This document shows, one piece after another, positions 2,244-33,210 of a DNA stretch of 33,387 bases. Below the pieces are notes generated by a model. It was not told the DNA's origin. It saw only the letters and a list, made by a program, of their open reading frames with translations, and made no database searches. Positions within the stretch are counted from its first letter, which is position 1. Each line of letters starts with the position of its first letter. Made by a program: the position numbers and the translations under genes. Source of the DNA: a bacterium (GTDB lineage: Bacteria; Auribacterota; UBA3054; JAPLST01); assembly GCA_026398485.1 (NCBI GenBank), contig JAPLST010000317.1, positions 1 through 33,387 of the forward strand, in the 5' to 3' direction.

Positions 2244-3155
2244 TCACCGCAGGAACAGGGAGTTGCGGAAGTAATCGGACACCGGGCCGTACTCGCCAAA
2301 GTAGGGGACTTGGCCGCTGCCTTTCATGGCCGCCTTGATCTTGGGCGGGTAGCTCTTCCATGTGCCGGCCGGATCACTGGCATCGACAATCGCGGTCGTG
2401 AACGTGCCGCCGCTGCCGGTCGATTGGGACGTCTCGCCATCGGCGCAGCCGCCCCAATGGATCACCTGCACCGTGCCCTCGTCCGTGCGCGGGACAAAGC
2501 CGCGCAAGACCAGCTTGGGCCGCTGCGCCGGCGGCAGGTTGCGGTAATTCGATCCGCTGTTGCAGGTGTCGGTACAGAACCACAGGCGCAGGTGCGCCGG
2601 CATCTGGCGGAGAAGCATGCCAAAGCGGTTGTCAACGTACTGGCCGTCGTACAGGCAGAGCGTCTCGGACATGCCGTCCTCTTCGCTGGGGTCAAGCGGA
2701 TCGGCAACCTGGCCGCCATGGCCACTGAAGAACACGGCCAGCAGATCGTTGCTGCCCAGCACGGCGCAGGCGTCTTTTATGGCGCGCTCGAAGTTGGCGG
2801 CCGTGGCATCTTGGTTGGTCAACACGACAATCTCGCCCGGAGCAAAGCCCGCGTCGCGGCACATCTGGGCGACCGTCTCGCCATCCACGTCCGTGTCGGG
2901 CAGGTCGCCAGGCCAGCCGCCGTAAGCGTCCGGATCCACCGATCGGCAGTAGCCGATGACGGCGCGCCGCGCGGTGCCCGTGGTCTTGATCGCGTCAATG
3001 TTGTTGGTGATCAGCCCGATCACGTCATCAACATAATTGGTGGCGTTCGCGCCAAACCAATTGCTGATGGTCGAGCATCCCGTCAGCAGGATCATCAACT
3101 GCATAGCCACCGACATTACCAATCCCATCACTACCAGTTTGCCTGTCGCTTTCAT
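2244..3155 (-). CDS. caspase-fold (peptidase C14-like) lipoprotein
   Basis: N-terminus MKATGKLVVMGLVMSVAMQLMILLTGC carries a lipobox. His motif FFSGHGG and Cys motif FCTDTCNSGS have typical C14 spacing. The internal start at 3155 was chosen for its signal peptide and SD (AGGGG). Confidence 0.7.
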   Translation of the reverse strand: MKATGKLVVMGLVMSVAMQLMILLTGCSTISNWFGANATNYVDDVIGLITNNIDAIKTTGTARRAVIGYCRSVDPDAYGGWPGDLPDTDVDGETVAQMCRDAGFAPGEIVVLTNQDATAANFERAIKDACAVLGSNDLLAVFFSGHGGQVADPLDPSEEDGMSETLCLYDGQYVDNRFGMLLRQMPAHLRLWFCTDTCNSGSNYRNLPPAQRPKLVLRGFVPRTDEGTVQVIHWGGCADGETSQSTGSGGTFTTAIVDASDPAGTWKSYPPKIKAAMKGSGQVPYFGEYGPVSDYFRNSLFLR

Positions 3156-3168
3156 ACTGCCCCTGTTT

Positions 3169-3588
3169 TTAGAAGAATGATTTGGCGCCACTTGCCATAG
3201 TGGCCAGCCAACTAAACAATCCCTGCCCAAGACTGACCGGGATACCACACATGCTGTTGATCCAGCCGCTGTTCTTGGTGTCGAGCGTGAAGCTGAATGT
3301 CTTGTTGATCCCATCGTAATTGACGGTGCGGGTCACGTCGCCAAAGCCGGAGTTGCGCACGTCGGCCATGGCGCACTCGGTCACGAGCTGCTGCATGAAG
3401 TCGCCGCCGACCAGCGCGCGCTCGCGCAGCATGATTTTGACCGGATCATTCGTGATGCTGCCCGAATTGAGCCATTGCTCGTTGGCCGTGATCCCGTGCA
3501 AACCAGAGCAGCCCGGCAGCAAAGCGAACAAGCCGATTGCCACGAAGGAGCGAATAAGCGGCAGCGCCATCTTTGGTTTGTGCATCAT
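3169..3588 (-). CDS. lipoprotein of unknown function (139 aa)
   Basis: Lipobox in FALLPGCSG. ATGA overlap with the upstream gene at 3585-3588. Confidence 0.6.
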   Translation of the reverse strand: MMHKPKMALPLIRSFVAIGLFALLPGCSGLHGITANEQWLNSGSITNDPVKIMLRERALVGGDFMQQLVTECAMADVRNSGFGDVTRTVNYDGINKTFSFTLDTKNSGWINSMCGIPVSLGQGLFSWLATMASGAKSFF

Positions 3589-22673: not shown

Positions 22674-22708
22674 AACATTACTGCGCGGATGGCCATCCAC
22701 GCGCTTAT

Positions 22709-22770
22709 ACTTTACACTGCCACGCCGGCAGTGTCAATACCTGTTTTTCCCTACTTTTCCCCGCTTTTCC
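22709..22770 (-). promoter_or_regulatory. strong sigma70-type promoter with phased upstream A-tracts and an operator-like palindrome
   Basis: On the minus strand: GGAAAAGCGG GGAAAAGTAG GGAAAAACAG GTA TTGACA CTGCCGGCGTGGCAGTG TAAAGT. The -35 is at 22732-22737, the spacer is 17 nt and the -10 is at 22709-22714. The palindrome ACACTGCC-N5-GGCAGTGT spans 22714-22734. Confidence 0.7.
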
Positions 22771-22934: not shown

Positions 22935-23146
22935 CGACCGACCTCCTGAGTTTTATTGGGCATAAGTTTGTTTACTTCTTGAACAAGATGGTTTAATTCG
23001 TGCCATAACCGGCATGCGACTGTTCCTGATCCGCACACTCCAGCAGTAACATTTAGGGTATCCTGAGCATATGGCAACACACGGCGCTCGATAAAGCTCA
23101 GCCGCTCTGCTGCGTTTTCTTCGTGTCTTCGTGTCTTGGTGGCCAT
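22931..23146 (-). CDS. hypothetical protein (71 aa), lower GC
   Basis: AAGGAG lies 8 nt upstream of the ATG at 23146. Confidence 0.5.
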   Translation of the reverse strand: MATKTRRHEENAAERLSFIERRVLPYAQDTLNVTAGVCGSGTVACRLWHELNHLVQEVNKLMPNKTQEVGR

Positions 23147-23156
23147 ACTATCTCCT

Positions 23157-23342
23157 TCACCGCCGGCCCAGATTCGCCAGCCAACGCTTGATCTCGTCTT
23201 CGCAGTAGAGCACCTTGTGCCCGCGCCCCTTCCCGGTCGCGTAGCGCGCGTGCATCTTGACCCGCCGCTCCCAGTTGCGGATCGTCCGCGGCGTCACGCC
23301 CAATCGCACCGCCACCTCTTTCTGCGACAGCATCTTGCTCAT
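23157..23342 (-). CDS. small HTH DNA-binding protein (excisionase/AlpA/MerR-type HTH)
   Basis: LSQKEVAVRLGVTPRTIRNWERR...LYCEDEIKRWL. ATGA overlap at 23339-23342. Confidence 0.6.
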   Translation of the reverse strand: MSKMLSQKEVAVRLGVTPRTIRNWERRVKMHARYATGKGRGHKVLYCEDEIKRWLANLGRR

Positions 23343-23590
23343 GCCACTCCCTTCTGCGTTTTACCAACAACCTTGCCTGCTGCGATTTCTTCGTGTCTTG
23401 GCTGGCGTCCGCCAGTCCCGCCCTGTGGCGTGGATGCCTTGGTGGTTAATCTTTCCAGCTTGCGCCGCATCGTCGCCACATACTCCGGCCGCGGATTGAA
23501 CTTCTCCTGCGCCGCCAACTGCGCCGCCAGCACCACCGGATCGTCCGCCACATGAATCGGCAGGATCCCCGACAAGCGCCGCTCAGTCAT
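23339..23590 (-). CDS. hypothetical protein (83 aa)
   Basis: The internal ATG at 23590 overlaps the upstream stop by 8 nt. Confidence 0.45.
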   Translation of the reverse strand: MTERRLSGILPIHVADDPVVLAAQLAAQEKFNPRPEYVATMRRKLERLTTKASTPQGGTGGRQPRHEEIAAGKVVGKTQKGVA

Positions 23591-24145: not shown

Positions 24146-24170
24146 CTAAAACCTTAAACATTTCAACGTT

Positions 24171-24458
24171 TCAACCCTGCAACCGCATCTCCAGTTGCAG
24201 CGGCTGCAGCCTGCAAATCCGCACGCGCTTGCCGCTCACCACGTCCGGACGCTTGCCGCACTCAATCAGCCGTTTGTTCTTGACCAGCTCGGTGATCCGC
24301 GGCCGCACCTTGTTCGGGTCGTGGTGCCGCAGGCGCACCATCACCTCCCGATCCGTCAGCGGGCCGCATTCCGCATACGCCTGCAGCACCTGCGCCTGCC
24401 GCGTCTTCACGTCCAGCGCGTCCCACGCCTCCAGGCTGTTCTCGTGCATCACCCTCAT
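24171..24458 (-). CDS. winged-helix DNA-binding protein (95 aa)
   Basis: VLQAYAECGPLTDREVMVRL...RPRITELVKNKRLIE. ATGA overlap with the replication-gene stop at 24455-24458. Confidence 0.5.
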   Translation of the reverse strand: MRVMHENSLEAWDALDVKTRQAQVLQAYAECGPLTDREVMVRLRHHDPNKVRPRITELVKNKRLIECGKRPDVVSGKRVRICRLQPLQLEMRLQG

Positions 24459-25360
24459 GCCGCCCCCTTGTTCCTGCATGCATCCATCTCGCGCTTGCAG
24501 TCGGCGCACACCGGCTCGTACTTTTCCCCATCGACAATCAGGCCGTGGCCTGGCTTGCCGCACACACCGCACGGCCCGCTGTACCACTCGTTGCCCGCCT
24601 CTGCGCCGGCGCCCGCCGCATACTTCACCCCGTCGCCGCTGTTCTCCCATGTCCGCACCGCCGCCCGCCAGTCCTTCATCGGCGTGTTCGCCTTGCCAAT
24701 CCGCCAGCCCCGGGCCGCGTAGTGGTCGGTGAACTTCGCCGCCATGCGCGCCGGGTCATCCCAGCCGCGTTCGCTCATGTAGCCCGTCAGCTCTGCCAGC
24801 GATGGTTGAACAAACCGTTGGGATCGTGGGCCCCCCCTGGGGGTACCTGCGCTAGCAGGTGGGGGATTCTCGATTCCGACTACGCAATCGGATACGAATA
24901 CGGATACGGGGCAAATGTTTGCATCTGCTTGCACATGCTTGCAGATGTTTGCATCTGCTTGCAGATGTTTGCAAACGTCAACCCCGGTGTGCTCGCGCCC
25001 GTACACACTCAGGCCACTGATCGTCTCGCGCCAGCACTCAACCCCCGATGGCGGCTGCGGAAACTTGGACGCCTTCGCCCGCGGCTGGTCTACCTTCGGC
25101 ACCACCATGTATCGCTTGCCGTGCTGTTCGTAACGGCGAACTGCGCCGGCCTTTTCGCACTCGGCGAGCAGACGGGCGACATCGGCATCACGTATGTCAC
25201 GGCAGGGGAATACTTCGGCTTTCAGCGCCTTGGTATACTCTTTGCGGCCAAAATCATCCAGCTTCAACAGCAAATGCACATAGAAGGTCTCCGCCGGCAG
25301 CGTCAACCCTTGAATCACATCACTGGTCAGCAGCCCGTCACGCAGCACTCTGTTCGGCAT
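24455..25360 (-). CDS. replication initiator / replisome organiser-like protein with an internal iteron array
   Basis: ATG at 25360 has GGGAGGGGG upstream. The C-terminal part PSLAELTGYMSERGWDDPARMAAKFTDHYAARGWRIGKANTPMKDWRAAVRTWEN matches a common phage replication-protein motif. The linker is encoded by tandem 10-bp repeats. Confidence 0.6.
   Translation of the reverse strand: MPNRVLRDGLLTSDVIQGLTLPAETFYVHLLLKLDDFGRKEYTKALKAEVFPCRDIRDADVARLLAECEKAGAVRRYEQHGKRYMVVPKVDQPRAKASKFPQPPSGVECWRETISGLSVYGREHTGVDVCKHLQADANICKHVQADANICPVSVFVSDCVVGIENPPPASAGTPRGGPRSQRFVQPSLAELTGYMSERGWDDPARMAAKFTDHYAARGWRIGKANTPMKDWRAAVRTWENSGDGVKYAAGAGAEAGNEWYSGPCGVCGKPGHGLIVDGEKYEPVCADCKREMDACRNKGAA
24911..24976. 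repeat. iteron-like array, six to seven tandem 10-bp units (GCAnnTGnTT); candidate replication origin
   Basis: gcaaatgttt gcatctgctt gcacatgctt gcagatgttt gcatctgctt gcagatgttt gcaaac. The 10-bp period places TTGCA on one face of the helix. Confidence 0.65.
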
Positions 25361-25880: not shown

Positions 25881-26347
25881 TATCGCACCGTTGGATACAG
25901 TTCGATACCAAGAGGATTAAGAAGCGCGCCAAGTTCGCGCACATGCCGGATGATCTGCACCATGTCGTCGGCGCTGAGACTCACCATCTTGGTCATTTCA
26001 ACCGGCATTTGGTACTCGTAGGTTGGGTTCACAACCTTACGTGTTCTCTTTGGCGCCGGCACCGGCCGCGCAGCGCCATGCCGCTGCCCCGCCGACATCA
26101 CCTCGGCCAGCGTGCCCTCGTCACGCAAGCCGATCAGCCTGGACATCTCCGCCGGCGAAACCAGCAGCTTGCCACCCTCCTTCTTGCAGCCCACGATCAG
26201 CTTGCGGTAGATCCAGCCATACACGCGCTTGTCCGGCACGCCCAGCACCTTCGCCGCATCCACCGCGGCCGTCCAGCCAGGCTCCAGCGTGCGCACCTCT
26301 CCCACCAGCGCACTCCCTTGCAGCAGCCCTTTCATCTCTTCATCCAT
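25880..26347 (-). CDS. early protein with an N-terminal excisionase-type HTH (155 aa)
   Basis: WTAAVDAAKVLGVPDKRVYGWIYRKLIVG...LLVSPAEMSRL. AAGGAG lies 6 nt upstream of the ATG. Confidence 0.5.
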   Translation of the reverse strand: MDEEMKGLLQGSALVGEVRTLEPGWTAAVDAAKVLGVPDKRVYGWIYRKLIVGCKKEGGKLLVSPAEMSRLIGLRDEGTLAEVMSAGQRHGAARPVPAPKRTRKVVNPTYEYQMPVEMTKMVSLSADDMVQIIRHVRELGALLNPLGIELYPTVR

Positions 26348-26357
26348 CTCATGCTCC

Positions 26358-26392
26358 TTACCGATTACTGATTACCGATCACCGATTACCGA
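26358..26392 (-). repeat. five tandem heptamers in the 5' leader (plus strand TTACCGA TTACTGA TTACCGA TCACCGA TTACCGA)
   Basis: Read directly from the sequence. The array lies immediately upstream of the SD/ATG of 25880-26347. Confidence 0.9.
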
Positions 26393-26463
26393 AGTAGCGC
26401 GGCAGGCAGAACGCGCCGCGCCGTTGCTCAGCCAATGGTCGTATTGTTTGCCATACTTGTCTT

Positions 26464-26703
26464 TCACTTCTCACCATCGGTCTGCGTCTCATTCAGATTC
26501 AAGCCGCTGAGAACCGGCGCCGCCACCACGCCGGCACCCAGCGTCTTGTACGGCGTCACGGCGATGTGATCCAGCACCTGGCATAGCACCATGCGGTTCA
26601 GCGCGTCAAGGTACTCTGGCGTGCAGCGCCGGCCCGCGCCGTGCACCACCCGCCGCACCCCCGCACAACTCATCAGCCGTGGCGCCTTGCGTGGCTTCTT
26701 CAT
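26464..26703 (-). CDS. hypothetical protein (79 aa)
   Basis: The internal ATG at 26703 gives an ATGA overlap with the upstream stop at 26700. Confidence 0.45.
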   Translation of the reverse strand: MKKPRKAPRLMSCAGVRRVVHGAGRRCTPEYLDALNRMVLCQVLDHIAVTPYKTLGAGVVAAPVLSGLNLNETQTDGEK

Positions 26704-27376
26704 ACCTCGATGATCACCAGCAGGTTGCCAATTGCCTCTAATTCCTCGGAAATAAGCTCCTCGCGCAACACGCGTTGCTTCTCCGTCAAGTCCGGAGCCA
26801 GCAGCGTGCATTCCAGCGTATCAGGATTGATTGCAATCTCGACATGCACGTCAATGGGATTCTGGCCGCGCACGATCGGCAGCGAAAGGTCGAATCCTTC
26901 CGGGATCGTGCTTTCAATCGCCTGGCGGCGTATCTGTGCAAAGTTGCCGCGGTCGTCCTTGGCGCGCTCGAAATACCCATCGATCTTCGTCTTGGCCGAA
27001 CGCAGATCACTCACCAGCTTCAGCGCCGCATCGCGCGTAGAAAACAGATACCGATGCATCTTGATCAGGTCACTCAGCGCCAATGGCGTCAGCGCCTTGC
27101 CCGTGTTGATCGGCAGCACCGCCAGTTCCGGCGCGTCCGTGATTTGACCTGTCACTTTCGTTGCATACGCACTGCTCTCGTTGAGCACCAAGCTGATCGT
27201 GCCGCGCTCGCGGTCAACCAGCACATGGCTGCATTCAGGATTGATCGTGTCCACGCGCTTGCTAATCCATTCAGCCGGTGCGCTGCCACCGGCTCTTTCA
27301 GCAGCAGCGCGCTACCCTCACGGATCACCAGTTCTTTGGTGTCACCCGTAACTTTGACCTCGATGTTCTTGCTCAT
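26700..27376 (-). pseudogene. early gene split between two frames (start 27376; frame change near 27255-27300)
   Basis: A well-supported start (AGGAG, ATG at 27376) gives MSKNIEVKVTGDTKELVIREGSALLLKEPVAA. The sequence then turns to junk in that frame, while the -1 frame reads APAEWISKRVDTINPECSHVLVDRERG... through to 26700. Confidence 0.5.
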
Positions 27377-27377
27377 G

Positions 27378-27809
27378 TCACGCTCCTTTGGCTTGCGCCG
27401 GCATCTTAATGACGCCCGGCAGGTTCTCCTGGCGTTCACTCACATCCAGCGGACGCTCAAATACGATTTCACCCTCGTCATTCACATACTGCGCCATGCC
27501 GGTCGCATGATCCGCCAGAACATAGCACTGCTCGTTCACCGAGCGGGCCTTGTCACGCAGCCCCTGGCACAGCTCGACAATCTCCTGCACCACCGGCTTA
27601 AGGCGCCCCTTGTGCTGCTCACGCACCGCCGCGTATTCAGCCTCAATCGCCGCACGGTGCAGCACCTGTTCGGTCAACTGATCACGCATCTCCGCCAGTT
27701 CTTCATGCGTGAAAGAGCGCATGTAACTGTGCTGTTTGATACTGACGCAGTTGTCCTTCAGCATGCGTGTCCGGTCGCCAACCAGCACGTCCTCAAACAA
27801 TCGCTTCAT
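27378..27809 (-). CDS. hypothetical early protein (143 aa)
   Basis: ATGA overlap at 27806-27809. Clean ORF. Confidence 0.55.
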   Translation of the reverse strand: MKRLFEDVLVGDRTRMLKDNCVSIKQHSYMRSFTHEELAEMRDQLTEQVLHRAAIEAEYAAVREQHKGRLKPVVQEIVELCQGLRDKARSVNEQCYVLADHATGMAQYVNDEGEIVFERPLDVSERQENLPGVIKMPAQAKGA

Positions 27810-28252
27810 AACCGCTCCTCATTGTTTTTGATTAACCACTCAACATGCCGCGCATTGCGGCAGATATGCACTGGCCAGCCCAGCGCCGCCAGCGCGTCAA
27901 ACGTCTTTTTCTGTCGATCACTCACCACCCCGCGCGCCGTCTTCAACTCGATCAGCAGTACCCGCTGCCCGGGCCCGAACGCGATCAAGTCCGGCCATCC
28001 GCACGGATTCCCGATCGCCGCATGGCCCGGCATGTGGAAGAACTGCCAGCCGCTGCAGCGCAGCACCAGTTCGCACGCCGCCTGCAGCACCTTCTCCTTG
28101 CCCGGCCACGGCGCCTCCAACGCATCAAGCATTTGCTGATGGTTCGATTCTTGTCGATGACTATTGACCAATAATAGCTTCTGCTCAATCTGCCGGCGAA
28201 CATCAGCCGGCAACTTTGCTAGATCCTCCATTGTCCAACGGTCGCCGCTCAT
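27806..28252 (-). CDS. VRR-NUC domain nuclease
   Basis: GWPDLIAFGPGQRVLLIELKTARGVVSDRQKKTFDALAALGWPV is a PD-(D/E)xK / VRR-NUC signature. The internal ATG at 28252 gives an ATGA overlap. Confidence 0.7.
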   Translation of the reverse strand: MSGDRWTMEDLAKLPADVRRQIEQKLLLVNSHRQESNHQQMLDALEAPWPGKEKVLQAACELVLRCSGWQFFHMPGHAAIGNPCGWPDLIAFGPGQRVLLIELKTARGVVSDRQKKTFDALAALGWPVHICRNARHVEWLIKNNEERL

Positions 28253-28644
28253 CGCAGCTCCTCCAGCCATTTCGCCGCCTCGGTCAAGCCCAGCAGGATC
28301 AGTCCGCCCACGTCATGCACCGTCATGGCCATTATCGAGCGCTTGTCCACCCCGTCATACAGCCGCATCAGCCTCACCAGCGCGTGCATCATCTGCGCGC
28401 GCAGCGTCGCCAGCGTCTGCGGCTTCGTGTCATAGGCCGCGTGCAGCCGATCTTCGTGCAGCTTCAGCAGCCGGTGCAATTCCTCGCGATACTGCCCGCG
28501 CAGCGACAGGTAGAACCCGACCTGCTTCTCGCTCAGGCCGTCCAGTGCGCCCATCGGCAGGTTCTCGCGCCCCGCCTCGATGTAGCTCACGCGCTTTTCG
28601 TCCCATGACGGCCGCTTCTTCTTCTGTTGCGTTTCATTCTTCAT
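28249..28644 (-). CDS. hypothetical early protein (131 aa)
   Basis: Clean ORF. The ATG at 28644 directly abuts a heptamer repeat array and has no SD. Confidence 0.5.
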   Translation of the reverse strand: MKNETQQKKKRPSWDEKRVSYIEAGRENLPMGALDGLSEKQVGFYLSLRGQYREELHRLLKLHEDRLHAAYDTKPQTLATLRAQMMHALVRLMRLYDGVDKRSIMAMTVHDVGGLILLGLTEAAKWLEELR

Positions 28645-28672
28645 ACTGAAAACCGTAAACTGAAAACTGAAA
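28645..28672 (-). repeat. four tandem heptamers in the 5' leader (plus strand ACTGAAA ACCGTAA ACTGAAA ACTGAAA)
   Basis: Read directly from the sequence. The array abuts the ATG of 28249-28644. Confidence 0.9.
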
Positions 28673-28680
28673 ACAACGCC

Positions 28681-29090
28681 TCACTTCGCGCGGGGATGCA
28701 TGCGCTCGATCGCGCGCCTGATCCCGCGCCCATACGCAACCCGCTCGCCGGCCAACTCCGGACTGCAGCCGCCGTGGTACACCAGCGCCGCATGCAACCA
28801 GGTCGCGTCCGGGCCGTACACCTTCTCATCCCGCGCCCGCTCCAGGCACACGTCCAGGTACAGGCCCGCCACTTCGCGCTGGCGCGCCTCGGACACGTCC
28901 GCGCCGGCAACTGCCTGCACCCGCTCATGCTGCAATACCGGTGCGGGTACAACTCCGTCCCATACATGTCCGCCTTGCTCTCCACCCAGCGGATCGCATC
29001 GAGGACCGTCTCGCGCGCTGGATTAGCGCACGGATCACAATACGCACTCGCCGTCATCAGCACCACTCCTGCTATGATTAGAGTTTTCAT
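28681..29090 (-). pseudogene. secreted lysozyme/transglycosylase-like gene, frame-disrupted near 28925-28945
   Basis: The start is coupled by ATGA at 29087-29090. The signal peptide MKTLIIAGVVLMTASA and the LDAIRWVES motif are in frame A. The rest of frame A is R/C/W-rich junk. The -1 frame reads VLQHERVQAVAGADVSEARQREVAGLYLDVCLERA...RAIERMHPRAK with high GC3 and ends at 28681. Confidence 0.45.
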
Positions 29091-29383
29091 AATGTCATTC
29101 TTTTTCTTCTACGCTGCTTATACTCTCCACAAACGTCAGAACACCACGTCACTGGACGCATCCAATTTGTAGTATCGTAATATGCGCCTTGATCATCTCT
29201 GAGCTTTTCGTCTGGTACTGACTTTACTGGTGGATAACGGTTACAGTGACCTCTATCAACATCATAAGTAATATCTCTCTCTAAGTCTCTGAAGTTGTTC
29301 CAATATACACACGTTTCACAACATCCACCAATTTCTTTTTGTGGGCTGTGTTTTGGTTTTATAATATTTGTAATTGCACTCAT
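29087..29383 (-). CDS. Cys-rich hypothetical protein (98 aa), low GC
   Basis: ATGA overlaps at both ends. CCETC...HC...C..VC. Confidence 0.5.
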   Translation of the reverse strand: MSAITNIIKPKHSPQKEIGGCCETCVYWNNFRDLERDITYDVDRGHCNRYPPVKSVPDEKLRDDQGAYYDTTNWMRPVTWCSDVCGEYKQRRRKRMTL

Positions 29384-29613
29384 GACACTATTCTCACACG
29401 CGAAAATTCATCTTCGCACCGATCCATCGCCGCGCACAGGCGTTTCCACCAGCGATTGACCGCATCCGCGCTGTGCCGGGCGGCCATCCTCTCGATCACC
29501 ACCCGGTCGGCCGTGATCCGGCAGTTGTTCTGCCGATGCTGCCGCCACACGCTGCACAGCCCGCTCTGCGACCGGAACGGCCGCCCTGTCAGTTGTTTCG
29601 TTTGCTTCTCCAT
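29380..29613 (-). CDS. hypothetical protein (77 aa)
   Basis: GAGGAGAGGAG lies directly upstream of the ATG at 29613. Confidence 0.5.
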   Translation of the reverse strand: MEKQTKQLTGRPFRSQSGLCSVWRQHRQNNCRITADRVVIERMAARHSADAVNRWWKRLCAAMDRCEDEFSRVRIVS

Positions 29614-29633
29614 CTCCTCTCCTCAGTTCTGAT

Positions 29634-29668
29634 TACCGTATACCGTATACCGCTCACCGTATACCTTC
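29634..29668 (-). repeat. five tandem heptamers in the 5' leader (plus strand TACCGTA TACCGTA TACCGCT CACCGTA TACCTTC)
   Basis: Read directly from the sequence. Positions 29640-29668 are identical over 29 nt to 30111-30139. Confidence 0.9.
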
Positions 29669-29896
29669 TCACCGCTTCCCGTCCAGCGTCACATACTGCA
29701 CCGGCAGTGGCCCTTTGCCACCGCTGCCCTGTATCGTGCCGACTTCACAGTCAACGATCACCCGTTCGCCCTGCACCGCCGCCACCACCAGCAGCGCGTT
29801 CAACCGCCGGCACAGCGACATGATGTCCATGCCCAGGTCAAACAGTTCCTCCTTGGTCATCTTCCCATGCTCCTTCTTTTCTGCCTTCTCTTTCAT
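29669..29896 (-). CDS. hypothetical protein (75 aa)
   Basis: ATGA overlap at 29893-29896. Confidence 0.5.
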   Translation of the reverse strand: MKEKAEKKEHGKMTKEELFDLGMDIMSLCRRLNALLVVAAVQGERVIVDCEVGTIQGSGGKGPLPVQYVTLDGKR

Positions 29897-30105
29897 AACG
29901 TCCCGTTTTCAACCAGCGCTTCAACCTGCCAGCGCGGTATAAGTGTCATTCGGCGATCGCGCCCCAGGGCATCCACGCTCGTGGGCCCCATCTTCGCCGG
30001 CGTCAGGTGCCCCGTCCGGATCAACCGGCGGATGTAGCCGGCCGTCACGCCATACTGGCTGACAATCCACCGCACCGTCACCGTCTGTTCCTTCTTCTTC
30101 TTCAT
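29893..30105 (-). CDS. small HTH DNA-binding protein (70 aa, excisionase-type HTH)
   Basis: The internal ATG at 30105 (MKKKKEQTVTVRWIVSQYGVTAGYIRRLIRTGHL...) directly abuts a heptamer array. The longer ORF-track start would read through the repeat. Confidence 0.5.
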   Translation of the reverse strand: MKKKKEQTVTVRWIVSQYGVTAGYIRRLIRTGHLTPAKMGPTSVDALGRDRRMTLIPRWQVEALVENGTL

Positions 30106-30111
30106 ACTGAA

Positions 30112-30139
30112 TACCGTATACCGCTCACCGTATACCTTC
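30112..30139 (-). repeat. four tandem heptamers (plus strand TACCGTA TACCGCT CACCGTA TACCTTC) overlapping the CII-like stop
   Basis: Read directly from the sequence. It is a 29-nt identical copy of 29640-29668. Confidence 0.9.
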
Positions 30140-30625
30140 ATGCCGCTCGCACACCGCCAGTATCGCCACCAGCGCCGCCAGCGCCTCGCGGCATTCGCAC
30201 GCGATTAAGACCCGCTCCCGCGCCGTCAACACCCCGTCCTCGATGCAGCGCACCCACATGTCCACCGCCTCGCTCACTTCCTTCAGCGCCATCGCGCCGG
30301 CGTGCAGCCCCTGCGCCGTGCCCGGCAGCGGCAGCCGCACCGCCACCCGCCCCACCTGCGCCTCGATCCAGTCCAGCATGCGCGTGTCGCCGCTTTGCTT
30401 CACCACCAGGTGAAACTTGTCCATCGGGAAGTGGCGCATGTCCGGGCCTTCCACCGCGTCATAGTACCGATAGGTGTAGTTCAGCCGGTGGCCGCACACC
30501 TCGGCGATGATCTTCGCCATGCCGCAGTCCGACTCCTTGACCCACAGCGACAGCGCCTCAAGGTAATCCACCTGCGGGGAAATCAGCGCACCCCGTTCCA
30601 CTTTCATGTCGTTCGCATTCGTCAT
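30125..30625 (-). CDS. first early gene; possibly a CII/CP76-like regulatory protein (166 aa)
   Basis: The pattern HFPMDKFHLVVKQSGDTRMLDWIEAQVGRVAVRLP...EVSEAV...DGVLTARE loosely follows my memory of phage 186 CII-type proteins. The functional call is weak. Confidence 0.35.
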   Translation of the reverse strand: MTNANDMKVERGALISPQVDYLEALSLWVKESDCGMAKIIAEVCGHRLNYTYRYYDAVEGPDMRHFPMDKFHLVVKQSGDTRMLDWIEAQVGRVAVRLPLPGTAQGLHAGAMALKEVSEAVDMWVRCIEDGVLTARERVLIACECREALAALVAILAVCERHEGIR

Positions 30626-30759
30626 ATCATGTTCTCATGCGATCATCACGGTTACAAGAAGAGCGGCGCGCGGGGTTCGGTTGTGTATGGTTCCCGTTGG
30701 GAGCACTGAGGAGGGTACTTGCTGTCCCGCGCGCCGCAGAAGAAGTGCCCCCGCCACTT

Positions 30760-30768
30760 TGGTATAAT
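30760..30768 (+). promoter_or_regulatory. extended -10 promoter element TGgTATAAT
   Basis: Perfect TATAAT at 30763-30768 with TG at 30760-30761, 45 nt upstream of the ATG at 30814. Confidence 0.5.
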
Positions 30769-30813
30769 GGACGGCATCCAGCGATCCATTTAACCCCAGC
30801 AGCGGGAGCGCAC

Positions 30814-31251
30814 ATGTCAGGTGAATTTATTACAGCAACCATCATCAGCAGCATCATCGCCGCAGCCAACACGGCCATCGCATACTTCGCTCTTGTTTCA
30901 ATCAAGAGCGTCATCCGCATTGGCGAAGCCAACCTGGCCGTCCTAAACCGCGAAGCCATGTCCATCACAATCAACCCGACTGCGGCGTCTACCATACAGG
31001 CCATCTTCTCAATCAAACAACCTGGTGTTGATTTCCACATTGAATCTATCTCAGTGTCCAAGTATAAGCGGCAGGGCGACGGGTGCCACATAAGGGACAC
31101 CGTGCACGCAATCCCGTTTTCCCGCACCATCGTCAAGGGAGCGCAGAACTACTTCGACCTGCCCAGTCAGATTGATCCCCGCCAAGGCGACATCATTACC
31201 TTTGCCGGCAAACTCAATGGTGTACCGTTCTCCATCTCCGCCGCCTTGTGA
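30814..31251 (+). CDS. N-terminally anchored membrane protein (145 aa)
   Basis: GGGAG lies 5 nt upstream of the ATG at 30814. MSGEFITATIISSIIAAANTAIAYFALV is followed by a beta-rich domain. GC3 is high in this frame. The ORF-track N-terminal extension is R/P-rich. Confidence 0.6.
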   Translation: MSGEFITATIISSIIAAANTAIAYFALVSIKSVIRIGEANLAVLNREAMSITINPTAASTIQAIFSIKQPGVDFHIESISVSKYKRQGDGCHIRDTVHAIPFSRTIVKGAQNYFDLPSQIDPRQGDIITFAGKLNGVPFSISAAL

Positions 31252-31444
31252 AATTAGATGCCATCCAAGCCATCCAACTACTAAAAAAAGCATGATTGAA
31301 CTCAACAGCAACACCAGCATTCCCATGAACACACCTATGTTTTCTGCAACTTCATTCCATCTTCGATTCATAGCTTTTAATTGTTGCCCGGCTGTTCGTG
31401 TTTTACGAACATGCCAAATGAAAAAAAGATGGCCGGGGACGCTT

Positions 31445-31458
31445 TCACTGGCAAGTGA
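31445..31458. promoter_or_regulatory. operator-like palindrome TCACT-GGCA-AGTGA (site 1)
   Basis: Perfect 5+5 inverted repeat upstream of the XRE gene. It shares the flank CTTTCACT with site 2. Confidence 0.45.
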
Positions 31459-31519
31459 GATCGGTGAGACCAATCGCGCCGCGCCGGCCATCCTGTGTTG
31501 CTATGTACTATTTCTTCTT

Positions 31520-31533
31520 TCACTTGCCAGTGT
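31520..31533. promoter_or_regulatory. operator-like palindrome TCACT-TGCC-AGTGT (site 2)
   Basis: 9/10 inverted repeat, 75 bp centre-to-centre from site 1. Confidence 0.4.
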
Positions 31534-31659
31534 CACAGATCGGGTTAATCTGAACCGCCCTGCTTTCGGGCGTCTGCGAACAGTATAACATATTTACGAA
31601 CAAAAGTCAAGCCCCCCGCCTTTTGACCTTTCAAGTGCTACAATTATGCTGTGAGACCA

Positions 31660-31998
31660 ATGCTCGGTACAATTCTGAAAGCGGCACGCGAGCACAAGGG
31701 CTGGACACAACAGGAACTCGCCGGCCACATGCGCGTGAAACACCCAATGATTGTCCGTTGGGAACTCGGCAAGAGTGGCAAACAGCAGTACCTGCCGTCG
31801 CCGGCGCGGCTGACGCGGCTGTGTGAGCTGCTGGGCATCGACGAGCGGCACGCGCAACTGCTGTGGGCGCAGGACATGCTGATCCGCAAGTTCGGCCAGG
31901 CGGCCTTCGACGATCTGGTCGCGCAACTGCACCTGGCCGATCTCCTGCCCCGCCTGCTCAAGCAATACCAACCCCCGCCGATCACACACACCAGGTGA
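31660..31998 (+). CDS. XRE-family HTH regulator (repressor-like, 112 aa)
   Basis: MLGTILKAAREHKGWTQQELAGHMRVKHPMIVRWELGK is a classical XRE/Cro-CI HTH. An alternative GTG start lies at 31651. Confidence 0.8.
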   Translation: MLGTILKAAREHKGWTQQELAGHMRVKHPMIVRWELGKSGKQQYLPSPARLTRLCELLGIDERHAQLLWAQDMLIRKFGQAAFDDLVAQLHLADLLPRLLKQYQPPPITHTR

Positions 31999-32001
31999 CT
32001 T

Positions 32002-33210
32002 ATGTTCAAACGCTTTTTGTTTTTGGTTTTACTCATCATAGTGTCCATCATAGTCATTAACTTGACGGACAGCCAGTTGGTCTGCTGGGCAGTTATTGTG
32101 ACTGACGTCATAATCGCGATACGGTGCGCATTTCCATCAAAACCAGCCAAGCTTGTTGCGCGTTCAACTGCCATTGCAGAACCATGTGATGTTGTTGTGA
32201 AATCCAGCAGCATTTGCACGGAGCCAAAACCAGATAACACTGATTTGCTTTCATCCACCACTATTATATTGGGCAAAGAAACCCGCTTACCGCTAACCTT
32301 GATAGCGGACAATATAGGTACCCGCCAAGTGATCGAGGAATTATTCGCGGGAAGTGGTCGCAATGATTCCAAACGCGGCCTCATAGAATCATTGGTATTG
32401 AGCGGTAGATTGACTTGTCCTGAACTTGATCGCTATGTGAAGAAGTATGCCTCTGCCTACGAAAAAAACATTGCGAAATTGAAACAGGCGCTTGGCAATG
32501 ATCATAGTATAGATGATGACATCATTGAACAAGCCTGCTCGACATGGCCATTTTCACAGCGCGACATATCTCTCATATACAAGAATAGCGACGCCTTTGC
32601 ATCACGTAACATAGAGCTTTTAATGGAATTTGGATTCAGTGCTCTTCAAACCTATTTGTTCAACGCGGGCAAGGTGATAAACGCAAAATACTGCGAAAAA
32701 ACAGTCATCGAAACACTGACCGACAAGGGGCTTGTAGCACCAATAAGTGAAGCGCCAATGTCGGACATATTATGTGCTCTTTCGGTTGATCAAATAAGGT
32801 TGTTGTGTGACAAGACAGGTGCTCCAAGAAGAAGAAGCAAGGCAGAGATGGCAGACGAAATAGTAAAAATAGCGGGCAACGAAAATGTTCTCCAGGATGC
32901 TGTGCGAGATTTGCCGCTGCTTTTGCTGCGTGATGAAAAAAGGATCACATCGGCATCATCACATAGCGTGAATGCTGACTCATGCATGTACAGTGCAACC
33001 TATAGCGACATTCTAATTGAAACACACGACGCTGCAGTGCGGGCGGTCGGCGATTATAAAGATTCAAGAGAATATACAGACCACTGGTCTATATTTAGTT
33101 GTGGATGTCCGTGCTGCAAAAAATATGAAACAATGAAGTGGAGCAAGAAGTCGCCGCCAAAAATTCCGTTTCACATTGGCTGCACATGCTTATTACAGCC
33201 CAATGGTTGA
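32002..33210 (+). CDS. low-GC membrane protein (402 aa) with a SAP-like motif and a MuF-like C-terminal Cys/His motif
   Basis: Starts 3 nt after the XRE stop. Two N-terminal hydrophobic helices. LSVDQIRLLCDKTGAPRRRSKAEMADEIVK is SAP-like. The C-terminus is CGCPCCKKYETMKWSKKSPPKIPFHIGCTCLLQP. Confidence 0.7.
   Translation: MFKRFLFLVLLIIVSIIVINLTDSQLVCWAVIVTDVIIAIRCAFPSKPAKLVARSTAIAEPCDVVVKSSSICTEPKPDNTDLLSSTTIILGKETRLPLTLIADNIGTRQVIEELFAGSGRNDSKRGLIESLVLSGRLTCPELDRYVKKYASAYEKNIAKLKQALGNDHSIDDDIIEQACSTWPFSQRDISLIYKNSDAFASRNIELLMEFGFSALQTYLFNAGKVINAKYCEKTVIETLTDKGLVAPISEAPMSDILCALSVDQIRLLCDKTGAPRRRSKAEMADEIVKIAGNENVLQDAVRDLPLLLLRDEKRITSASSHSVNADSCMYSATYSDILIETHDAAVRAVGDYKDSREYTDHWSIFSCGCPCCKKYETMKWSKKSPPKIPFHIGCTCLLQPNG

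Follow-up and report, generated by a model that had tools for sequence, protein, structure and literature searches.

The subject of this work is a set of four arrays of tandem 7-nt repeats (heptamers) in the early operon of a phage or prophage that makes up a 33,387-nt contig (JAPLST010000317.1, assembly GCA_026398485.1), the whole of which is called the window below. Genes for a large terminase and a minor capsid protein are present in the window. Its early operon is on the minus strand behind a strong sigma-70-like promoter at 31582-31610, which is divergent from an open reading frame (ORF) at 31651-31998 whose sequence looks like that of an XRE-type repressor. The operon starts with a CII-like gene, a small HTH_17 gene, genes for 75-, 77-, and 98-aa proteins, and a split transglycosylase-like gene (so labelled from its sequence), continues with genes for a 131-aa protein, a VRR-NUC nuclease, and a 143-aa protein, a split ~229-aa gene and an 80-aa gene, and ends with a 155-aa HTH_17 gene, a 180-aa gene, and a replication-like gene. 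There are 14 junctions from the CII-like gene to ~24.2 kb. Ten of them overlap or abut, and the remaining four, which have gaps of 19, 55, 36, and 116 nt, are exactly the array-bearing ones, so that the arrays separate blocks of translationally coupled genes. The original prediction, made for this DNA from its letters, that every sizeable gap of the operon carries an array is true of these 14 junctions but not of the ~1 kb stretch from the early promoter (~31600) to the CII-like gene, which is array-free.

All four arrays are given here as read on the minus strand, and sequence inspection and Tandem Repeats Finder, in which all four appear as period-7 rows, confirm the places predicted for them. 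Array 1 (26358-26392) consists of TCGGTAA TCGGTGA TCGGTAA TCAGTAA TCGGTAA, followed by GGAGC and, a little further on, an ATG. It sits between a conserved stem-loop and the Shine-Dalgarno sequence of the 155-aa HTH_17 gene, AAGGAG at 26354-26359, which overlaps the final unit and is located 6 nt ahead of the ATG at 26347. Array 2 (28645-28672) reads TTTTCAG TTTTCAG TTTACGG TTTTCAG, then a single T and the ATG at 28644 of the 131-aa gene. Array 3 (29634-29668), which is (A)GGTATAC GGTGAGC GGTATAC GGTATAC GGTAATC, starts directly behind the stop codon that ends the 75-aa gene, with GAGGAGAGGAG and then an ATG (29613) on its 3' side. Array 4 (30106-30139) reads (A)GGTATAC GGTGAGC GGTATAC GGTATTC AGT and runs into the start codon (ATG, 30105) of the small HTH_17 gene, and the TGA of the CII-like gene (30125-30127) falls within it. 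One caveat is an in-frame ATG at 30141, which would turn array 4 into coding sequence; with a start there, the array would be the N-terminus of the small HTH_17 product and overlap the end of the CII-like gene. As the arrays span the distance from the preceding stop codon, or hairpin, to the next ribosome-binding region, each array can be regarded as the entire intercistronic leader.

The description of a period of 7, a CRGU core, and a placement just upstream of genes was borne out. On the gene strand, (C)RGT recurs every 7 nt in all four arrays, and RGT in 7-nt register over at least four units is found at only four loci in the window, all of them on the minus strand, where block shuffles give an expectation of 0.015 loci per strand. 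Across the whole window, no such register was found on the plus strand or at the other periods from 4 to 12. A self-similarity scan free of any motif likewise returned four-unit tandem arrays at period 7 only, namely arrays 1 and 2. Positions 29640-29668 and 30111-30139 (minus strand) are identical over exactly 29 nt, as predicted; this block, common to arrays 3 and 4 and interpreted as a tract of conversion or duplication, is the sole exact repeat of at least 20 nt in the window. The two types of array end were also described correctly: arrays 2 and 4 end in TTCAGT ATG AAG without a Shine-Dalgarno sequence, whereas AAGGAG comes after array 1 and GAGGAGAGGAG after array 3. Many units consist of a 6-bp palindrome plus one base (GTATAC, TGATCA). 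Array 1 has stop codons in all three frames and arrays 2-4 do not. An all-frame stop-codon cassette, which would fit array 1 and arrays of the TCRGTRA type in general, was rejected as a common function because it fails for arrays 2-4.

Arrays in strains and relatives

The phage lineage is rare and has few relatives. A nearest-phage DNA search gave no match among sequenced phages, scans of viral, metagenome, and genome collections anchored on the 143-aa and 131-aa proteins gave no relatives, and homologue searches returned only one or two clusters for each protein. The relatives L222 and L223 end before reaching the array region. One syntenic contig, L001, shares 59% amino acid identity in the 143-aa anchor protein and has arrays at three shared junctions, that is, between the CII-like and HTH_17 genes, the transglycosylase-like and 131-aa genes, and the 80-aa and 155-aa HTH_17 genes, together with one other array. 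The unit in L001 is different (CTTGAAA, CTGGAAA, or CTGAAAA), and its arrays reach up to ATG AAG AAG without a Shine-Dalgarno sequence. Since array 2 of the window reads ACTGAAA on the plus strand, an ACTGAAA-type unit lies on opposite strands at the same junction in the window and in L001.

Strain variants were obtained from contigs of the source freshwater lake metagenomes, which are ~97% identical to the window. Array 1 has five units in the window, seven in strain X6, which carries two extra, and seven in the relative L247. In X6 and X9, array 3, whose sequence was reconstructed from the listed differences, reads TTACCGA TTACTGA TCACTGA TTACCGA TCACAGA on the plus strand and is composed of array-1-type units. 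Array 4 contains many insertions and deletions in X10, and in X7 and X9, 79 nt around array 2 are swapped for 65 other nucleotides that end in another heptamer-like run. Collectively, the position and the period persist, and the sequence and the copy number do not. The 29-nt identity of arrays 3 and 4 and the exchange of units in X6 point to conversion between arrays. Absence or lack of conservation in relatives had been named in advance as evidence against a meaningful element; the positions of the arrays are conserved. In addition, array 1 and array 3 are connected in both directions by short-read contigs of X10, with a forward or backward jump of ~3.28 kb (26358/29634); these joins are either a real deletion or duplication between arrays or an assembly-graph artefact of shared heptamers.

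Heptamer repeats beyond this phage

The motif of the arrays had at first gone unrecognised, but it belongs to a described class, that of intergenic heptanucleotide repeats (PMC4679880, PMC4692102, PMC2700814), also referred to as STRR or long simple sequence repeats, in which the window arrays can be placed with high confidence. They contain at least three head-to-tail 7-nt units, above chance, and occupy non-coding gene boundaries between co-oriented ORFs, near or overlapping the upstream stop codon. The same loci are occupied in relatives with variable copy number and unit, and for arrays 1 and 2 the unit is dispersed over many unrelated loci and genomes. Intergenic heptamers were described in cyanobacteria decades ago as STRR (Mazel 1990, as cited in PMC4692102) and have since been noted in Xanthomonas, Geobacter, and Beggiatoaceae; no mechanism or function for them is established in PMC4679880, PMC4692102, PMC2700814, or the preprint 10.1101/2022.06.06.494920.

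The closest counterpart is the TAACTGA repeat, of which a Beggiatoaceae genome has 169 sets (MacGregor 2015, PMC4679880). These are mostly intergenic and directed at a start codon, the commonest end being 1 nt before that codon; most sets lack a ribosome-binding site, the functions of the downstream genes form no pattern, and the repeats also occur in Cyanobacteria and Bacteroidetes (PMC4679880). The likeness to the window extends to the tandem 7-nt units, with two to six copies there, sometimes interrupted by related heptamers (PMC4679880), to intergenic ends near a start mostly without a ribosome-binding site, and to the overlap of some sets with the end of the upstream ORF. An array end a few nucleotides from the start without a ribosome-binding site is seen for arrays 2 and 4, whereas arrays 1 and 3 have Shine-Dalgarno sequences. 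The forward TAACTGA directed at a start codon is absent from the window arrays, whose units are TCGGTAA, TTTTCAG, and GGTATAC and whose AAACTGA- or TTACTGA-like strand is opposite to the gene; in L001, AAACTGA and AAACTTG are one-base variants in the forward orientation, as in the TAACTGA sets. The settings also differ, being a phage operon here and a chromosome-wide set there.

GGGAATC/GGGGAYT heptamers, known from Xanthomonas and Nostoc, occupy the gaps that separate co-oriented ORFs, where they are found on the sense strand either overlapping the stop codon or shortly behind it (Rehm 2015, PMC4692102). They occupy the same loci in two Xanthomonas species with variable length and sequence, and some form convergent inverted pairs (PMC4692102). 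They resemble the arrays studied here in the sense-strand location up to 50 bp after a stop codon, the typical number of about four units, the inverted pairs, and the shared but variable loci, and GGTATAC-type array 3 even contains a GGTAATC unit one base away from GGGAATC. The differences are that the window arrays extend to the next start codon as well and that their units, being without G-tracts, have no quadruplex potential. In Geobacter metallireducens, arrays of five tandem MTYCTGA units are arranged as inverted pairs (Aklujkar 2009, PMC2700814). They are similar to the window in the five-unit arrays and the CTGA/TCAG core, and their inverted pairing is like that of the Mu-like viral contigs described below; they were annotated, without evidence, as putative sites for a global regulator, and the window arrays are single and unpaired. 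The Nostoc preprint describes heptamers close to start codons that affect reporters modestly and for which no binder was identified (10.1101/2022.06.06.494920).

A functional role has been proven for phase-variable heptamers, namely ATCTTTC of hmw1A/hmw2A in Haemophilus (PMC8262952, PMC12721329) and AAGACTC of neuO on prophage CUS-3 (PMC3046976). In these cases, a gene, prophage-borne for neuO, has 7-nt repeats in its 5' leader or at its 5' end, and slippage changes their copy number, which sets expression. The leader of array 1 shares the copy-number polymorphism, with five versus seven units. Their repeats are long and perfect, whereas the window has four to seven imperfect units known from sequence.

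The distribution of the unit was examined by a genome scan with one genome per species and a pattern of 3.7 units of TCRGTRA, for which we estimate a chance expectation of ~0.03. At least 120 loci with 4-38 units were found in many phyla. Cyanobacteria, Chloroflexota, Acidobacteriota, Verrucomicrobiota, Planctomycetota, and Bacteroidota are among the matches listed, as are Deltaproteobacteria, Streptomyces, Burkholderiales, and others. Arrays of heptamers as such are frequent, and among them the TCRGTRA family is favoured; in viral contigs, 97 TCRGTRA loci were counted, compared to 19 and 3 for two composition-matched scrambled heptamers. The genomic neighbours are ordinary housekeeping genes such as those for ABC transporters, transketolase, alanyl-tRNA synthetase, and topoisomerase, and no gene family was enriched next to TCRGTRA arrays in these genomes; on these grounds, a mobile-element or phage-specific signature was rejected. 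The possibility that such repeats are generic simple repeats found elsewhere, also raised at the outset, is largely the case, given the many phyla and the housekeeping neighbours. In the source lake metagenomes, the word depth of arrays 1 and 2 is 10-50 times that of their flanks, and many contigs match the array only and then continue into unrelated flanks. No excess word depth was found there for arrays 3 and 4 (GGTATAC type), so that dispersal is seen for arrays 1 and 2 alone.

In other genomes, as judged with a simple ORF caller that performs unreliably on GC-rich DNA (the early region is an example) and so gives approximate figures, the TC (5') end of the array is at most 21 nt from a same-sense stop codon in 44 of 62 cases and at most 21 nt from an opposite-sense start codon in 19 of 32. 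The opposite end has no such anchor and is a median of 70-90 nt away from the next gene, and an inverted partner array follows in 19 cases and precedes in none. This gene-boundary rule was re-derived on 217 other loci.

An elaborate form is present in Mu-like viral contigs from IMG/VR with GemA and Gam domains and a GC content of ~0.6 (L200, L194, L151, L142, L186, L184, L185, and L139). Nearly every intergenic gap in them contains stop-(TCAGTRA)n-AAGGCAAAA-(TYACTGA)n-ATG. The two arms make up a near-perfect hairpin of ~30 bp, and the stop codon of one gene and the start codon of the next meet at its base. Gene coupling or cleavage by RNase III are possible roles of these hairpins.

Possible roles of the arrays

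The explanation that we tentatively prefer is that the arrays are heptamer microsatellites acting in cis as spacers between translationally coupled blocks. Replication slippage would create and change them by gain or loss of whole 7-nt units, and conversion or recombination between arrays would produce the 29-nt tract and the swap of unit type in a strain. They would persist at the only non-coding sites of the packed early operon, which are the four block boundaries, and would there probably serve as weakly structured mRNA spacers in cis. After arrays 1 and 3, translation may be initiated de novo at the downstream Shine-Dalgarno sequence, and after arrays 2 and 4 by initiation or re-initiation without one. 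Copy number and unit type could tune expression, and a dedicated sequence-specific ligand would be unneeded. The components of this explanation differ in strength. The identity, placement, polymorphism, and distribution of the arrays were observed, slippage and conversion are deduced from them, and the effect on translation is hypothetical. Class membership, remodelling by slippage and inter-array conversion, and block-boundary placement, taken together, are held with high confidence; that the arrays in cis constitute an intercistronic leader that sets initiation of the next gene in a manner tunable by copy number is held with moderate to low confidence.

Several observations weigh against a spacer without a ligand. 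The orientation of the arrays relative to transcription is uniform, in four of four arrays in the window and four of four in L001. The CRGT core is kept in strict 7-nt phase in the four arrays and in the X6 replacement, with the other three positions varying, and a core with a variable spacer would look like a recognition motif. That arrays are kept at the same junctions through full turnover of the unit suggests selection for the array as such. The TCRGTRA family is 5-30 times commoner than the scrambled heptamers in viral contigs, indicating that the unit is not arbitrary and that slippage alone is insufficient; slippage alone leaves unexplained the persistence at junctions, the TCRGTRA preference, and the anchoring of one end to a stop or start codon. 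In the available metatranscriptomes, no transcription of the phage was detectable. Furthermore, many genes of the window phage have no Shine-Dalgarno sequence, arrays aside, which weakens the idea that an array replaces it and leaves that idea without specific support. Of the three mechanisms first proposed, one is retained as plausible, namely a Shine-Dalgarno-independent action on translation as a cis leader or spacer; it fits the placement and the two starts without a Shine-Dalgarno sequence, although such starts are frequent in this phage.

The simplest alternative, which we consider somewhat unlikely, is that the arrays are functionless, slippage-prone repeats tolerated where nothing is encoded, the gaps themselves being made by repeat expansion. 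Gaps that are almost wholly array, the fast turnover of copy number and units between near-identical strains, and the occurrence of identical units beside unrelated housekeeping genes in many phyla would all be expected of such repeats. Heptamers are also cited as the most abundant class of long simple sequence repeats, possibly arising by polymerase slippage (Mrazek 2007, as cited in PMC4679880). It is harder to reconcile with neutrality that three of the four junctions are occupied, by another unit, in a relative with 59% protein identity, that the unit preference is strong and non-random, and that gene ends serve as anchors of the arrays. In two conserved genes, the start codon directly adjoins an array and no other element precedes it, so that the array must at least permit initiation.

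Short arrays at module boundaries, shared within a genome and between genomes, could instead provide homology for the exchange of gene blocks among phages, with out-of-register pairing shifting the copies. Their position exactly between coupled gene blocks, the 29-nt tract of arrays 3 and 4, the array-1-type units in array 3 of X6, the mosaic replacement across array 2, the presence or absence of a low-GC gene beside arrays, the VRR-NUC nuclease in the operon, and an orientation that is not conserved between relatives are all in line with such linkers, as are the X10 contigs joining array 1 to array 3, but the latter joins, from short-read unitigs, may be graph artefacts. A linker role is nevertheless unlikely, as 28-35 bp of imperfect repeat is marginal homology and arrays are common beside chromosomal housekeeping genes, where exchange of modules is not expected.

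In a different and likewise unlikely explanation, the arrays, with their anchors at stop and start codons, would be the cis element of a widespread system and would be recognised by a conserved cellular factor that covers 7 nt, perhaps chained OB-fold proteins (Csp, S1) or the ribosome itself. Phages would copy host arrays and thereby split their operons into separately initiated translation blocks; the stop-to-ATG hairpin of the Mu-like contigs would be the coupling device, and the window would have its single-arm version.

A binding protein of the phage or host acting on RNA is quite improbable. Here, an oligomeric protein similar to HutP or TRAP, or chained cold-shock or S1 OB folds, would occupy one CRGU per 7 nt and regulate translation of the next gene. 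TRAP binds 9-11 GAG/UAG triplets with spacers of 2-3 nt, HutP recognises two groups of three UAG-N4, with a period of 7, and the footprint of a cold-shock domain is 6-7 nt; a short core at a fixed short period in an mRNA leader is common to these operators and the window, and the period of HutP is the same. The CRGU is in phase everywhere with variable spacer positions, also in the X6 array, and every array is carried by the transcribed strand and reaches the ribosome-binding region or its immediate vicinity. Array-type words are present in metatranscriptome contigs, that is, in community RNA, and S1, Csp, and CsrA have been proposed as binders of the TAACTGA repeats (PMC4679880). The (G/U)AG triplets of TRAP and HutP operators are not found in the four arrays, where the core is CRGU and the 4-5 copies per array are fewer than TRAP needs, and the core is absent in L001. 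The ACTGAAA unit is on the opposite strand relative to the genes in L001 and in the Mu-like contigs. The four leaders fold no better than shuffled sequences (z from -1.4 to +1.6), no terminator or antiterminator and no competing or sequestering structure that could be switched was found at any array, and Rfam covariance models gave no family at the arrays and a single match elsewhere, at 31783-31833, that is below threshold and irrelevant. Among ten early-operon proteins, scans with Pfam and PHROGs detected neither TRAP or HutP nor a ribbon-helix-helix protein or other candidate, and a PDB sequence search found no match to solved structures for the 75-, 77-, and 80-aa proteins. The units differ among the arrays, the strains, and L001, and the spread over phyla, beside housekeeping genes, argues against a phage-specific RNA-binding factor. 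Collectively, the TRAP-like multi-site ligand favoured by the original prediction is now disfavoured.

Equally doubtful is a double-stranded DNA operator or roadblock, in which a dimeric protein, either an omega-like ribbon-helix-helix protein or one of the two HTH_17 proteins, polymerises inside the operon and blocks or modulates transcription. The omega protein of pSM19035 binds contiguous 7-bp heptads, WATCACW, which are bound by several protein copies on a mobile element. Contiguous heptads of the sequence TTTTGAT, likewise bound by a protein in several copies, are found at the ctxAB promoter on CTXphi (bioRxiv 10.1101/2021.05.14.444153). The plus strand of array 1 reads GATTACC/GATCACC, a loose resemblance in which one unit (GATCACC) has the ATCAC core. 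The palindromic character of many units would suit a dimer, the flips of orientation between relatives would be tolerated by double-stranded recognition, and both HTH_17 genes follow arrays (4 and 1) in the window as well as in L001. However, the omega and ctxAB heptads are at promoters and have an identified binder, and a promoter-like site was found next to none of the arrays, the only strong one being that at 31582-31610, which goes against the promoter-operator form of the DNA-binding regulator suggested earlier. The units also vary among arrays and strains, and similar arrays lie beside housekeeping genes in many phyla. Pairing of GGUGAUC with the 3' tail of 16S rRNA (GAUCACC) was considered and set aside, since no more than one unit in each array fits and a central mismatch is present in most units.

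Whichever explanation applies, the window adds to the class a compact phage case in which four arrays each fill one boundary of coupled blocks, together with natural copy-number and unit variants and a relative that keeps the positions and not the sequence. On a wider scale, TCRGTRA arrays occur in many phyla and are favoured over scrambled units, with one end anchored to a stop or start codon and with inverted pairs in the gaps of Mu-like contigs. For any effect of the arrays on translation or coupling, phage operons as small as this would be the simplest reporters. If the arrays are inert, they are still useful hypervariable markers, and they break short-read assemblies.

Other features of the window

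A stem-loop on the minus strand (26397-26432), GCGCGGC-GCGTTCTGCCT-GCCGCGC with a box GCTGAGCAACG ahead of it, is immediately 5' of array 1 and marks its beginning. In the L001 orthologue (~3445-3490), the loop GUUCUGCCU(G) and the preceding box GCUGAGCAACG are kept, and the stem covaries, being GCGCGGC/GCCGCGC in the window and GCCAGG/CCUGGC in L001. The stem-loop is also present in L247 (1-26). A DNA pattern based on the hairpin gave just two chance matches in metagenome contigs, both inside coding sequence. The element could be a nut-like site (boxA and boxB), a terminator lacking a U-run, or a hairpin to which a protein binds.

Splits were seen in two of the early genes. In the window, a frameshift near 27255-27300 breaks the orthologue (26700-27439) of the 229-aa gene of L001, and the transglycosylase-like gene (28641-29090) lacks ~76 nt near 28924-28928 compared to an X1 contig; the two are pseudogenes or assembly errors. 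The 77-aa and transglycosylase-like genes are separated by an inserted low-GC, Cys-rich 98-aa gene (29087-29383). It is missing in strain X6, which skips 29081-29413, and behaves like a moron or accessory gene. The stretch at 30626-31580 contains uncertain small membrane-protein ORFs on both strands, and a Cro-like gene is absent there. A low-GC 402-aa gene (32002-33210), with no assigned function, is located beside the repressor-like ORF, and a caspase-domain protein is encoded at 2244-3314; together with the small ORFs, these may represent exclusion or defence cargo.

Other short repeats were also observed in the window. Nested tandem repeats of 10, 20, and 30 nt (GCAAATGTTTGCATCTGCTTGCACATGCTT) within the replication-like gene (24889-24975), with comparable ones at the same place in L222 and L001, are probably origin iterons, as in lambda O. 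Three phased 10-nt repeats, GGAAAAGNNG, on the minus strand at 22745-22770 are directly upstream of a promoter-like TTGACA..TAAAGT (~22700-22740) and are kept in L222 (2408-2433); with a helical period of 10, unlike that of the heptamers, they resemble the activator sites of a promoter for late or middle genes. An imperfect direct repeat of ~25 nt with the core CCAAGACACGAAGA (23378-23402 and 23117-23141) surrounds a small ORF at ~23157-23339, and its second copy holds a period-8 triplet, GACACGAA. Another period-8 repeat, GTTGAAAC GTTGAAAT, is located right after a gene end at 24157-24175 and is kept in L222 (1953-1971), and its unit resembles the CTTGAAA heptamer of L001.

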